IMG/VR virus record: IMGVR_UViG_2609459769_000019
Strand: one strand, 5' to 3'
From: a virus
Lineage: Duplodnaviria > Heunggongvirae > Uroviricota > Caudoviricetes
Length of the DNA: 12,920 nucleotides
Part shown: positions 876-12,920 of the stretch, piece by piece
How positions within the stretch are numbered: the first letter of the stretch is position 1
How the letters are laid out: each line of letters starts with the position of its first letter
Made by a program: the position numbers and the translations under genes
Notes under the pieces: model-generated
The model's database searches: none
What the model was told of the DNA's origin: nothing
What the model saw: only the letters and a program-made list of their open reading frames with translations

Positions 876-1159
876 ATCACATTCCGGTAACCCCAGATAA
901 TGGCAACGGTGCCTTCAAAGGTTTTGTTCACGATGGCGTAGCCATAGGCTTTCATCTTCTCGATGACGCGGGAGCCGATCCACTCACGGAACTGCGGGAA
1001 CTGCCCCAGCCAGCCGTAGGTGTTGGATTTCGACGTGGACGGTACGGTCATCGCAATTTTCTGGTACTGAGACGGAGCCATGGACATCCCGGCCTGAAAA
1101 TCAGAACGGTAGCCCGTCATCAGGGCGGTGATCATCGCCGGTGTGATCGGGGTAGGCAT
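872..1159 (-). pseudogene. T: Truncated major head subunit (Mu T-like), N-terminal 95 codons only
   Basis: ATG at 1159 overlapping the stop of the I-like gene (TAATG) with upstream AAGAGGAAA; N-terminus ...SNTYGWLGQFPQFREWIGSRV...NKTFEGTV matches the Mu-type major head protein N-terminal pattern; frame stops at 874-872, whereas full-length proteins of this family are about 300 aa. Confidence 0.6.
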
Positions 1160-2934: not shown

Positions 2935-2974
2935 ATTGCCTCCGCATAAAGGATGAATATAAAATAAACAGGCG

Positions 2975-3054
2975 GTCAGTGTACGCTTAACTGGTAAAGT
3001 CGGTGCCTGCCTCCGGGTGGATCATGTATGCGGGTTCGACCCCCGCCACTGACC
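2975..3054 (+). other. tRNA-like structural element (7-bp acceptor-like stem plus canonical T-arm) in the F-G intergenic region; not a complete tRNA
   Basis: GTCAGTG (2975-2981) pairs perfectly with CACTGAC (3047-3053); internal 5-bp stem GCGGG/CCCGC (3030-3034 / 3042-3046) closes a 7-nt loop TTCGACC (T-loop-like); I could not fold a convincing anticodon arm by hand and no CCA is encoded. Confidence 0.25.
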
Positions 3055-3055
3055 G

Positions 3056-9944: not shown

Positions 9945-10445
9945 TCAGACTTTCGGCAAGTCGTAGCGACATAACCATTCATCCGCCGAACGGCGGGCCT
10001 CAAGGCCGGGGAGTTTCACCCCCTTTGAATAAATCCAGCGGATATACTGCTTACAGGACGCGGGCATCTGTCCGGCATTGATAAGGCGCAGAAGCGTGGA
10101 GTTGCGGAAGTTCGTTTCACCGGCCCAGAAGATCCACGAAGCCAGCGCCACCGTCTGACCACGGGTAAGTGGCACCTGAACACGCCGGTCAATGGCCGCA
10201 AAGGCCCATTTCATGTCCTTTTCCAGCAGTTCCAGACATTCTTCATCGGTTTTTGTCATACCCGGTTTCACATCCGGGCCGGTATGGCCGTGGCAGATGG
10301 TGGGGGTGCCGGTGGGGTCGAGATACGTGGTGTTTTCTTTCCCTTCCCAGTAGCCGGTGTAGTGCGTGGCAATAGTGAACGTCCCGGCTCCGGCCAGAAC
10401 AAGGGCAATCAGCTTTTTACGCAGTGGCGCGGGGAGTTTTGGCAT
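9945..10445 (-). CDS. lys: Endolysin, T4-lysozyme-like (GH24) with N-terminal signal-anchor-release (SAR) segment, 166 aa
   Basis: ATG at 10445; N-terminal LIALVLAGAGTFTIATHY hydrophobic stretch after a basic N-terminus; catalytic E-x8-D-x5-T triad (EGKENTTYLDPTGTPT) followed by GHTG motif. Confidence 0.85.
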   Translation of the reverse strand: MPKLPAPLRKKLIALVLAGAGTFTIATHYTGYWEGKENTTYLDPTGTPTICHGHTGPDVKPGMTKTDEECLELLEKDMKWAFAAIDRRVQVPLTRGQTVALASWIFWAGETNFRNSTLLRLINAGQMPASCKQYIRWIYSKGVKLPGLEARRSADEWLCRYDLPKV

Positions 10446-10516
10446 TGTTACGCTGTCTCATGGTGTTCTCTGAGCCAGCGTAACCGTGGAAAAAAGGGGG
10501 CAGGATTTGCGGAATA
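10446..10516 (-). promoter_or_regulatory. Candidate activator-dependent late promoter upstream of the endolysin (Plys equivalent)
   Basis: 71-bp gap between the activator gene and lys; coding strand contains CCTGCCCCCTTTTTTCC; assignment by position only. Confidence 0.3.
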
Positions 10517-10939
10517 TCAGAAAAGCCGGGGCTGCGTGCGCTCCTGATGCAGGCGACGCTGGTTGCGGATAACGGAGTAAATCTGCGTCTCTGACATCTG
10601 GTAATGGCGGCGCAGGGTTTCAATTTTTTCACCCTGGCTCCAGCGGGAAAAAATCTCATTATTGCGCAGTTCGGTGAAAAGGGATTCACCGACCGGGAGA
10701 TAATAACCACGCCCGCCCATGTACCCGGCCTGTGCGGCCGCAACCTTACGGGCAAGCATTCCCGCCTGAGCAGATTCAATCCCCTGACGGTGCAGTTCAG
10801 CACTGATCACATCAACCAGGTCACGCAGCGTGCCGGGCCAGTTCTTTTTCAGCTCATCATCAGGAATATCATCCAGACGGTCAATCAGCGCGTGCAGCTG
10901 TTCGCTGTCACCAAACATGCTCATCTGTGTTTCAGCCAT
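10517..10939 (-). CDS. Mor/C-family transcriptional activator (140 aa; by size and position more likely the C-type late activator)
   Basis: ATG at 10939 with GGAGG 6 nt upstream; acidic N-terminus and basic C-terminal HTH-like region typical of Mor/C proteins; sits immediately upstream of lys. Confidence 0.75.
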   Translation of the reverse strand: MAETQMSMFGDSEQLHALIDRLDDIPDDELKKNWPGTLRDLVDVISAELHRQGIESAQAGMLARKVAAAQAGYMGGRGYYLPVGESLFTELRNNEIFSRWSQGEKIETLRRHYQMSETQIYSVIRNQRRLHQERTQPRLF

Positions 10940-10971
10940 ACCCGCCTCCGGTCATCATTACACAGGGCAAG

Positions 10972-11005
10972 TTTAAAATAAAAATCCCGCGCTGTGGCGG
11001 GATTT
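10972..11005 (-). terminator. Rho-independent terminator after the truncated transposase gene (possibly doubling as an activator-binding dyad)
   Basis: Minus-strand AAATCCCGC-CACAGC-GCGGGATTT hairpin (9-bp GC-rich stem, 6-nt loop; plus 10982-11005) followed by TTATTTT; starts 5 nt after the stop codon at 11012-11010. Confidence 0.55.
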
Positions 11006-11009
11006 GGGG

Positions 11010-11918
11010 TTAAAAAGGGGAGGATTCTTCATACAGCCTGCAAACGCGCTCATAACTCATCACTGTACGCGCTGACACCCGGCCTTTTTGTTTCACCACT
11101 TCCGGCAGTTTCTTCATTGCGCGGCGAATGGTGTCATAAGACGGCATGATATCGAGCATATAAGGCTCATCAGCGTGCCGGTACTGCCATTCAGCGACAA
11201 AATCCTCGTAAGCCTCGGTCATTGGTCGGCCGTTTGACTGGCGATACTGCGCCAGAAATTCGGGCAGCCAGTTAATATCTTCGGCTTTTATTTCCTGGCG
11301 CTTACCAGGTGCCAGCAAAAGCAGGCGTTCAGCGGCGTTCTGCGCCTTGTTAAAGGCTGCAATCCAGCGTTTCAGCGTGATTTCACTCAACGCACGGCTG
11401 TTTCCCTTTTTGGCGTTCGCCGTCTCAACCATTGCCACAATGCGCTCGTCCAGTTGCGAACGTGCCAGGTTGTCAACGATAAACCGGATAGCCTTCGCAC
11501 AGCTGAAACCAGGTTGTTGCGCGACTTTCAGAACTTCGCTGACGATCGCGATTCGTGCATCAGCCACCTGGCGCTGGTTTTCAGTCAGAGCATTAAGGCG
11601 TTCGACCATCAGTTGTGGTGATCCGCGATATGCCTCCACCGCATCAACCACGGCAGGCGAGCGTCTGGCCTTTGTCACCACTGGAGCCGGTGATTCATCG
11701 ACTTTTTGAGTCATCAGTTGCAGGGCGTAGCGTTCACGTAATGCCTGCTGCGTCACTTCAGGTAAACAGTCGATGCTGTATTCAGTTGCTTTAGAGCCTG
11801 AGCGACGACGGGAACAACAGCTTTTCCCTTGTACGTAACGTTGTAATGCCTGGCGAATACCTTTTGTTGTAGCAGGCATTCCGGGCGCGCCAATCAGTTC
11901 TTTTGCAATGACATACAT
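11010..11918 (-). CDS. Truncated Mu transposase A homologue: N-terminal DNA-binding domain only (302 aa), no DDE catalytic core
   Basis: ATG at 11918, 1 nt after the ner stop; N-terminus APGMPATTKGIRQALQRY...GSKATEYSIDCLPEVTQQALRER resembles the winged-helix enhancer-binding domain of MuA/Mu repressor as I remember it; ORF stops at about 300 aa against about 660 aa for full-length MuA; terminator follows directly. Confidence 0.55.
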   Translation of the reverse strand: MYVIAKELIGAPGMPATTKGIRQALQRYVQGKSCCSRRRSGSKATEYSIDCLPEVTQQALRERYALQLMTQKVDESPAPVVTKARRSPAVVDAVEAYRGSPQLMVERLNALTENQRQVADARIAIVSEVLKVAQQPGFSCAKAIRFIVDNLARSQLDERIVAMVETANAKKGNSRALSEITLKRWIAAFNKAQNAAERLLLLAPGKRQEIKAEDINWLPEFLAQYRQSNGRPMTEAYEDFVAEWQYRHADEPYMLDIMPSYDTIRRAMKKLPEVVKQKGRVSARTVMSYERVCRLYEESSPF

Positions 11919-11919
11919 A

Positions 11920-12168
11920 TCATGACGCCTTTCTCATATAGCTCTTAACCTGGTATCGACTGGGCCAGATTTCTTCAGGCGATACCCCAAGAGCATCAGC
12001 AATTATTTGCTGATACGGTCGGCAAGGAGTACGTAATACGCTTTTCAGCGAATCCCTGCTGTAACCAGCCTTTAAAGATAAAGAGCGCAGTGATAAGCCA
12101 GCCATGTGTAAGCGCGCCTTGATGATTTCAGGCGGCCAATCGTGATCTGAAACTTCTCTTCTACTCAT
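11920..12168 (-). CDS. ner: Ner-like DNA-binding regulator (82 aa)
   Basis: ATG at 12168 with AGAGGAAG upstream; ...LSLRSLSLKAGYSRDSLKSVL...QQIIADALGVSPEEIWPSRY matches the Mu Ner family signature (IIA.AL...P...WPSRY); divergent from the repressor gene. Confidence 0.85.
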   Translation of the reverse strand: MSRREVSDHDWPPEIIKARLHMAGLSLRSLSLKAGYSRDSLKSVLRTPCRPYQQIIADALGVSPEEIWPSRYQVKSYMRKAS

Positions 12169-12335
12169 ACTTCCTCTATTCTAAAAAGTTACCCGCGCGG
12201 ATATTCGTGCGGATATCTGTACGGGTAAATAATAGAACAAACAAAAGAACCAAATCAAGGTATTTTGTTCTTTTTATTCTTTGCGGTGTTTTTGTTATTA
12301 ATATCAATAAGATAAATAAAAAGGAACCTGAGAGC
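12169..12335. promoter_or_regulatory. Divergent immunity control region between ner and the repressor gene (candidate operators and promoters)
   Basis: AT-rich 167-bp spacer; tandem 12-bp direct repeat CGYGCGGATATY at 12194-12205 and 12206-12217, flanked by inverted TTACCCG (12189-12195) / CGGGTAA (12222-12228); second inverted repeat AGAACAAA (12234-12241) / TTTGTTCT (12264-12271); TAGAAT -10-like hexamer on the minus strand. Confidence 0.5.
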
Positions 12336-12920
12336 ATGAACATGAAAAACAGTTCTTTTCTCGACGAAGGAAAAGAACCAGTGATCGAACGGATTTTTCG
12401 TCTTGCAGAGCGTTACAAATCGAGAAGTGAGGCGGCTAGAGCATGGGGAATAAACGTTCAGACATTGCAGAACTACTACAAAAGGAGAAACAATCAGCCG
12501 CCACCACAACCAAGAAAGCACCATCTCCAGAACATTGCAGAAAGAGAACATGTATCTATGGAGTGGCTAGTCAATGGTTATGGTGATGAGCCAAGCATGA
12601 AAAAAGAACCAATTGAACAAACAAAAAGAACAAAAAAACAAAGAATTGATGATAGTGATTCCATCATCATGAGGGCGTGGGACTCGCTAACTTCATCTGA
12701 ACAAGAGATTTTGTCCAACTTATTGATCAGAAAAGGGGCCGAACTACTAACCGTTTTGCTTGATACAGATATTCAAAAACTGCACTCATTGAGCGGAGTC
12801 AAAAGAGCACTAGCATTGAGTCTACAAGAGTTACCCGATGATACTGTAAGAGAGATTTATGAAGAATGTGAAGCTAAGGTTAATCATTTAAATGTAACCC
12901 AGAAAAAGGCTGGTGCGTAA
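12336..12920 (+). CDS. Prophage repressor (194 aa): HTH N-terminal domain joined to a Mu c-like C-terminal domain
   Basis: ATG at 12336 (second ATG at 12342) preceded by AAGGAA; the track's longer ORF starts at a GTG at 12207 inside the operator region; N-terminus has a classical HTH (RSEAARAWGINVQTLQNY); C-terminal segment LLIRKGAELLTVLLDTDIQKLHSLSGVKRALALSLQELPDDTVREI resembles the Mu repressor C-terminal region from memory; gene is distinctly AT-rich. Confidence 0.65.
   Translation: MNMKNSSFLDEGKEPVIERIFRLAERYKSRSEAARAWGINVQTLQNYYKRRNNQPPPQPRKHHLQNIAEREHVSMEWLVNGYGDEPSMKKEPIEQTKRTKKQRIDDSDSIIMRAWDSLTSSEQEILSNLLIRKGAELLTVLLDTDIQKLHSLSGVKRALALSLQELPDDTVREIYEECEAKVNHLNVTQKKAGA

Follow-up and report, generated by a model that had tools for sequence, protein, structure and literature searches.

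The window analysed here (the whole stretch of DNA, 12,920 nt) comprises the left two-thirds of a Mu-like prophage of E. coli, of the Sp18 type and in a decayed state, situated in the trp–btuR–yciK region and adjoining yciK. The 302-codon open reading frame (ORF) that follows the ner gene in this remnant is more than a truncated transposase gene: it is an in-frame chimera, A'–'GemA, of the start of the transposase gene and the end of the gene for GemA/gp16. This deletion-made stub probably arose as a neutral by-product when the prophage decayed in the ordinary way, and nothing points to a new function. The window thereby represents a nucleotide-resolved case of a transposable prophage that has been grounded, the repressor having been kept and the transposition machinery lost.

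Gene Order in the Window

Gene order across the window is Mu-like, and all genes but one lie on the minus strand. The exception is the c repressor gene (12336–12920, plus strand), divergent from the early operon, which encodes 194 aa when read from the RefSeq start codon, an ATG (the mechanically called ORF opens with a GTG at 12207). It is separated from the early operon by a putative intergenic control region (12169–12335), which is AT-rich, with a GC content of 0.41. There follow, on the minus strand, ner, the first early-operon gene (11920–12168; PF13693, HTH_35, E = 2.5e-19), the 302-codon ORF (11010–11918), which starts 1 nt past the ner stop codon, an intrinsic-terminator-like hairpin with a T-run (11005–10982), and the gene for a Mor-family transcription activator (10517–10939; PF08765, E = 4.9e-31). 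The order ner, 302-codon ORF, terminator, and Mor/C-family gene was also given in an earlier reading of the DNA from its letters alone (hereafter the sequence-only reading), whose account of the segment 10940–11918 is accurate; this segment consists of the 302-codon ORF and a 70-nt spacer to the Mor-family gene. Downstream of the latter, and on the same strand, are found in order the genes for lysozyme, spanins, a TraR-like protein and gp27, then those for the large terminase, the portal protein, MuF, G, and the protease/scaffold, and what is left of the major head gene, a stub of 95 codons.

Comparison With Intact Relatives

Two intact E. coli prophages served as references: L001, from strain 2014C-3050, inserted in hofQ, and L004, from strain FORC_069, inserted in the elfC usher gene and representing a complete 39-kb genome. 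In L001, the gene order is c, ner, A (encoding a transposase of 696 aa), a B-type AAA ATPase gene, Gam, about 13 small ORFs, gp16/GemA, Mor, and lysozyme, and the gene order of L004 matches it. The Sp18-type family comprises intact prophages of about 39 kb located at strain-specific sites (PMC2669165, PMC7430833). With members of this type (Sp18 of the O157:H7 strain Sakai and the prophages of 2014C-3050 and FORC_069) the window copy has in common the gene order, near-identical DNA, and a left end initiated by TG, but it differs from them in two losses, 7.8 kb from the early genes and 11.7 kb from the head and tail genes, and in its chimeric transposase stub.

Window positions 12920–11076 align with L001 12001–13845, and window positions 11080–898 align with L004 13987–24169 at 98.5% identity. 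Identity to L001 is 99.5% for the left arm and 88% for the right arm, and identity to L004 is 91% and 98.5%, respectively; the closest intact relative switches exactly at the first deletion junction, junction 1 (window 11076 vs. 11080). At this junction, 7,846 bp are absent with respect to L004 and 8,332 bp with respect to L001. What lies between the breakpoints in the intact relatives is the D-D-E core of the transposase, the B ATPase, Gam, and the approximately 13 small ORFs. The distance from ner to mor is 0.98 kb in the window, vs. 8.8 kb in L004 and 9.3 kb in L001.

The sequence-only reading had proposed a gap of about 1 kb between ner and the activator gene, and had attributed it to a deletion of the early region. 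Both proposals hold, and the breakpoints could be placed to the nucleotide against the intact relatives; a second deletion, of 11.7 kb, had been overlooked. The same reading had also counted mor among the lost genes, which is not borne out by the relatives: their annotation contains a single Mor/C-family gene, at the corresponding position immediately ahead of lys, and the Mor-family protein of the window is identical to that of L004. Mu has two such activators, Mor and C. In the intact members of the family, the single annotated Mor/C-family activator comes after the early-operon terminator and just before the lysozyme gene.

Among 5,426 complete E. coli genomes, a megablast search with window positions 10400–12920 identified related prophages in 234, none of which spanned the 3' end of the 302-codon ORF; the match of the best relatives (99.5%) ends at 11076, inside a 696-aa "Mu transposase C-terminal domain-containing protein." Similarly, junction 1 was absent from all 5,426 genomes when they were searched with a 351-nt query spanning it. 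The full c–ner–A–B left arm is present in 188 complete genomes (at least 80% coverage of an intact-left-arm query). Because these 188 genomes have the full left arm and none has junction 1, the compact layout of ner, short ORF, and mor is derived and not native. Whether intact relatives might share this arrangement was a question raised by the sequence-only reading itself, and none of those in the 5,426 genomes does.

Between the MuF and G genes, the RefSeq annotation of L004 contains a "tRNA-OTHER" feature (22013–22092, approximately window 2935–3055). Scans of the window for tRNAs (ARAGORN) and with Rfam gave no matches, including in the part equivalent to this feature.

A Chimera of Transposase and GemA

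Codons 1–281 of the 302-codon ORF (11076–11918, minus strand) are the N-terminus of the 696-aa Mu-type transposase, and codons 282–302 are the last 21 codons of GemA/gp16, joined in frame (SARTVMSYERVCRLYEESSPF and the stop codon; 11010–11075, minus strand). The length of 302 codons was correctly given in the sequence-only reading, but the reading frame is not simply cut short by a stop codon, since it is fused to these 21 codons. On the transposase side, the DNA is 99.5% identical to that of L001 up to window position 11076; seven of the 8 nucleotide differences are synonymous, and the one amino acid change is Y246 for H. On the other side, the comparison covered the 19 last residues, which agree at every position with the C-terminus of the gp16/GemA protein of L004 (169 aa; PF06252, E = 1.2e-29), and all 21 tail residues are readable in the sequence of this protein. 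The stop codon of the chimera is that of GemA/gp16, the last gene before the native early-operon terminator, and the deleted span extends from transposase codon 282 to gemA/gp16 codon 148.

At junction 1 (11075–11077, minus strand), the transposase parent reads AAAGGCCGGGTG followed by ACCGGC, the gp16 parent reads GCTGGGGATG followed by TCAGCG, and in the product GGCCGGGTG is followed by TCAGCG (the 30-mer across the junction is GGCCGGGTGTCAGCGCGTACAGTGATGAGT). In a base-by-base comparison with L001 and L004, the exact overlap of the parents was limited to the 2 nt TG (GGGTG vs. GGGATG), and the crossover took place somewhere inside this TG (11077–11076), which is common to both. Illegitimate recombination with this 2-nt microhomology would have excised approximately 7.8 kb.

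Domain Content of the Stub

The only Pfam content of the stub is PF02316, the Mu DNA-binding domain (E = 4.4e-07; 30.7 bits, with a curated cut-off of 23.3 bits). The I-alpha winged helix was also detected by phmmer against the PDB (1tns, E = 0.025), and both results agree with the proposal that the N-terminus of the ORF resembles domain I of MuA. An AlphaFold model of the stub (29 homologues, mean pLDDT 77.8) consists of a winged helix (residues 1–70), a disordered linker (74–92), and two helical bundles, and it matches 1tns, 2ezl, 2ezi, and 4fcy. With Foldseek, the comparison of this model with 1tns (I-alpha) gave a probability of 1.00 and a TM-score of 0.61 on the target, at 34% identity. 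Together, these results support, rather than prove, the view that the stub is a complete MuA-type domain I (I-alpha, I-beta, and I-gamma) and nothing else.

The mapping of the domains is based on the structure model because phmmer searches of the PDB reached only I-alpha with the stub and, with the intact transposase, retroviral integrases and no MuA. By Pfam and by fold, the stub has the same three-subdomain DNA-binding architecture as domain I of MuA (1tns, 2ezk/2ezl, 2ezh/2ezi, 4fcy), but sequence identity is only about 15–34%. These comparisons indicate that the 696-aa transposase is only distantly related to MuA; its earlier description as a MuA relative stands for the architecture of domain I and not for the closeness of the two proteins, given that the intact protein misses MuA in the PDB search.

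The catalytic residues of the intact relative, D309, D375, and E415, lie in the motifs IGDGH, YSDNG, and IIERLN. This D-D-E core is missing from the stub, whose transposase part ends at residue 281, 28 residues before D309. No rve-type Pfam match was found in the stub, whereas the intact 696-aa protein has weak, sub-threshold ones; the C-terminal domain PF09299, which is matched by the intact protein (E of about 1e-17), is absent from the stub as well. It is this C-terminal domain that includes the region in contact with MuB and ClpX. According to the boundaries published for MuA, I-alpha comprises residues 1–76, I-beta 77–168, and I-gamma 178–242, with domain II starting at 258 and D269 being located therein (PMC3362531), and the cut at residue 281 corresponds to the MuA linker from I-gamma to domain II. 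The stub lacks the catalytic features that define a transposase. With domain I kept and the DDE core gone, it bears out the earlier conclusion that the element is unable to transpose on its own.

A Second Deletion and the State of the Element

The second deletion, of 11,672 bp, is marked by junction 2 (898–900, minus strand; ORFs 872–1159 and 546–875), which has a 3-nt microhomology, TTA. Here, approximately the first 87 codons of the major head gene T run directly into the interior of the gp48/YmfQ baseplate gene, and most of the head-completion, tail, and baseplate genes are gone. The losses at junction 1 include D309, D375, and E415, the C-terminal domains of the transposase, the B ATPase, Gam, and the approximately 13 small early genes. 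Because the A core, B, and most head and tail genes have been deleted, the element is immobile and non-productive, capable of neither transposition nor formation of virions. The Mor, lysozyme, TraR, DUF2730, G, and protease products are identical to those of L004, and the portal protein differs at 3 residues. Since the retained genes have kept their full length and differ little or not at all from those of intact relatives, both deletions are considered to be recent. In the source contig, the left end of the prophage is found shortly beyond the window, about 1 kb from the stub; it starts with TGTAACCAGGTGAATCATTTGATACC and carries three TTTGATAC repeats. The source contig stops in the tail-fibre region, before any right end.

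The window is 100% identical to contigs of the E. coli draft genomes GCA_000704525.1 and GCA_000711565.1, as well as to an IMG/VR contig. In a large protein collection, the exact 302-aa protein, annotated as "putative phage transposase domain protein," was found in 5 contigs with four GenBank accessions, from strains that include 3-020-07_S3_C1 and 2-460-02_S4_C2. Among the IMG/VR contigs containing the 21-mer to the left of junction 1, 35 of 37 have an intact transposase and 1 has this allele. The allele is thus rare and recent: it showed no spread beyond 5 contigs of 100% identical sequence, and it occurs in 0 of 5,426 complete genomes. Because of this rarity and the lack of divergence since the deletion, no signal of maintenance is found.

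Early-Operon Control and a Possible Inhibitor Role

Within the early operon, the stub comes second, immediately after ner and before the native terminator. The hairpin at 11005–10982 has a 9-bp stem with 5 GC pairs, followed by TTATTTT. In the scan as a whole, terminator-like sites were no more frequent than in shuffled sequence, and this site is counted because of its position and its presence in the intact relatives; the sequence after gp16 is also found in L004, and the 98.5% alignment passes through it. It is a putative terminator, and the early operon in its native form probably ends here.

Both the c and the ner protein match their L001 counterparts at every residue, c being annotated at the same position there. 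The c protein has weak HTH_23 and HTH_psq matches, and it is regarded as the putative repressor from its position, by analogy with Mu c. In Mu, the repressor and the transposase share a DNA-binding domain, the repressor resembling I-alpha. The element differs from Mu in this respect: no similarity was found by BLASTP between the c repressor and the I-alpha region of the transposase (11649–11918), and c does not appear to be an I-alpha paralogue. For this reason, the Mu-style logic of a shared operator and enhancer should not be assumed. For the c–ner region, two inverted repeats (I2 and I14) and a direct repeat (D3) were detected in L002, where the locus is identical. The sequence TTGTTCTTTT / AAAAGAACAA, present in inverted as well as direct copies at approximately 12236–12281 (L002 9638–9683), provides candidate operators, and a promoter-like site at 12258–12229 on the minus strand is a match to consensus only.

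With an intact divergent repressor gene, the early operon, including the stub, would be off in a lysogen, and on derepression the cell would produce Ner and the stub. In MuA, binding to the enhancer is the task of I-alpha, and the ends are recognized by I-beta/gamma (PMC3562280, PMC3362531). The stub, if made, may occupy the phage ends and the enhancer in the same way (PMC3562280), and it would be unable to cleave, to transfer strands, or to contact B or ClpX (PMC3362531).

The sequence-only reading had suggested that a DNA-binding domain of this kind might act as a transposition inhibitor or an immunity factor. That the stub is a working dominant-negative factor, which would block transpososome assembly at the ends and enhancer of Sp18-type phages, incoming or resident, seems to us unlikely. 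Its architecture would suit such a role, with all three DNA-binding subdomains kept, nothing catalytic, and functions assigned to the corresponding parts of MuA; in addition, a cognate left end with its three repeats lies about 1 kb away in the source contig, and truncation at this codon has occurred at least four times, the partners being different. However, the allele is rare and, not having diverged since the deletion, it offers no changes from which selection might be read. The stub is also placed behind the early promoter and beside an intact repressor gene, identical to that of an intact prophage, so it is predicted to be off when protection would be needed, and the c protein has no similarity to I-alpha. 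Moreover, other fusions in the family break in I-beta (residue 143) or in the core (residue 375), which indicates that retention of the whole of domain I is no rule, and a mutational hot spot, involving a GC hairpin loop and G-run microhomology, accounts better for the repeated use of codon 281.

Truncated transposases that are expressed and have demonstrated inhibitory activity include the KP repressor of the Drosophila P element, InsA of IS1, and Inh of Tn5. The stub resembles them in coming from an internally deleted element in which the site-specific DNA-binding part is kept and catalysis is lost; this resemblance to KP/InsA-type inhibitors is one of architecture only. C-terminally truncated MuA proteins were reportedly engineered and tested by Betermier and colleagues in the late 1980s, and these laboratory truncations likewise combined C-terminal loss with retention of end binding, the stub being a natural case. 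A search of a literature collection for natural or engineered truncated MuA inhibitors returned no relevant work. The idea of the stub as a regulator is corrected, and little else follows for the window itself.

Origin of Junction 1 and Recurrent Breakpoints

Instead of a deletion within one prophage, junction 1 might have arisen by illegitimate recombination between two Mu-like prophages in one chromosome, with loss of the intervening DNA. The change of best relative exactly at the junction, from L001 (99.5%) on the left to L004 (98.5%) on the right, would fit such an event, and many E. coli genomes have more than one matching place. These phages are mosaic in any case, however, and a single parent with a mosaic switch within the deleted 8 kb explains the same pattern; recombination between two copies would, furthermore, delete or invert the essential chromosome between them. 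We consider this origin improbable and retain that of a deletion within a single mosaic prophage.

Related remnants were collected through a protein search for the same transposase N-terminus, to which the complete genome DLI.5a and IMG/VR contigs were added. In L004 coordinates, given as the positions left and right of each join, the junctions of the window are 6140/13987 and 24169/35842. Those of L005 are 6139/21275, 27999/31321, and 31435/35843, and L012 has 6139/27055 and then the same 27999/31321 and 31435/35843 as L005. In L032, the junction 6139/6469 produces an in-frame loss of residues 282–392. A second group consists of L007 (6423/14123), which retains A residues 1–375 joined to the whole Mor protein, L009 (6424/40427), L047 (6424/29280), and L022 (6427/23431). 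Finally, L010 has the junctions 5726/6257 and 7842/~31436, and L011 has 5727/~31436.

Codon 281/282 therefore anchors four different deletions (window, L005, L012, and L032), and codon 375 anchors another four (L007, L009, L022, and L047); the recurrence of the breakpoints is exact to 1–3 nt, and the partners differ. Where host flanks are readable, L005 and L012 occupy one insertion site, and the window, L007, L009, and L011 occupy different sites. Since their flanks are only 93.8% (window and L005) and 96.5% (L007 and L009) identical, the members of each of these pairs are taken to represent independent events. The right arm of L010 is identical to that of L011. In an unbiased catalogue of large deletions from 62 IMG/VR loci, which contained about 10 independent large internal deletions and so shows such losses to be common in this family, other left ends also occur (7752, 7929, 8664, 13656, and 13742), and the two anchors are for this reason hot spots rather than exclusive sites.

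Small GC hairpins hold both anchors in their loops, the one at codon 281 being GCCGG-GTGA-CCGGC; GGGG(A/T)T immediately precedes the join in all four codon-281 partners. Recurrent anchors may arise when the hairpin causes stalling or a break and a jump guided by microhomology follows, and as a working model this would explain recurring stubs limited to domain I without selection. If confirmed, the recurrent anchors would offer a natural system for the study of hairpin- and microhomology-driven illegitimate recombination, and they are the only part of these observations that might repay further work. The remnants also supply natural transposase truncations as candidate inhibitors.

Several other sources of recurrent breakpoints were considered and rejected. 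For transposase pseudo-ends, TG and GTGAAT at the spacing of attL are present at the codon-281 site only and not at the other sites, and replicative transposition cannot link internal to internal sequence. The restriction site GGTNACC is present at two sites, with cut positions that do not fit, and the gyrase consensus fits the codon-281 site only. Gin pseudo-sites were considered on the junction sequences and not retained, and IS-mediated adjacent deletion was rejected because no IS remains at any junction. Assembly chimeras were rejected for the recurrent breakpoints, the parents having no common repeat at the joins.

The breakpoint of the window falls neatly at the boundary between domain I and the core, and three of the four codon-281 fusions are in frame, the fourth, in L012, stopping 14 codons past the junction. 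A break at a domain boundary and in-frame fusions could hint at selection for a folded product, with numbers too small to tell. A stronger version of this idea, in which codons 281/282 and 375 would be programmed or structure-driven break points that repeatedly yield transposase derivatives limited to DNA binding or catalytically dead, and some of these would be kept as host protection against related phages, like a bacterial equivalent of the KP repressor, is given little credence here; what speaks for it is the sharing of each anchor by four deletions across unrelated phage lineages and insertion sites. As for an assembly artefact at junction 1, the carriers are short-read draft assemblies, but this explanation is highly implausible: the parents share 2 nt at the join, with no repeat to mislead an assembler, and the junction is real because it is identical in at least two independent NCBI assemblies, in 5 contigs, and in an IMG/VR contig.

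Further endpoints and fusions were observed in the same set of remnants. L004 position 31435–31436 (region 31424–31436) stands on the right side of the join in L010 and L011 and on the left side in L005 and L012, and L004 position 35842–35843, which is equivalent to window 898–900, is an endpoint both in the window and in L005/L012. In L005 and L012, a 115-bp island (31321–31435) is retained between two deletions. In-frame chimeras comprise residues 1–375 and the entire Mor protein in L007/L008 (6001–7548), residues 1–375 and a DUF6645 tail-fibre protein in L009 (6001–7527), and residues 1–143 and a DNA-circularization protein in L011 (6001–7419), and L010 (236–1792) encodes a transposase with an internal loss of approximately residues 144–321.
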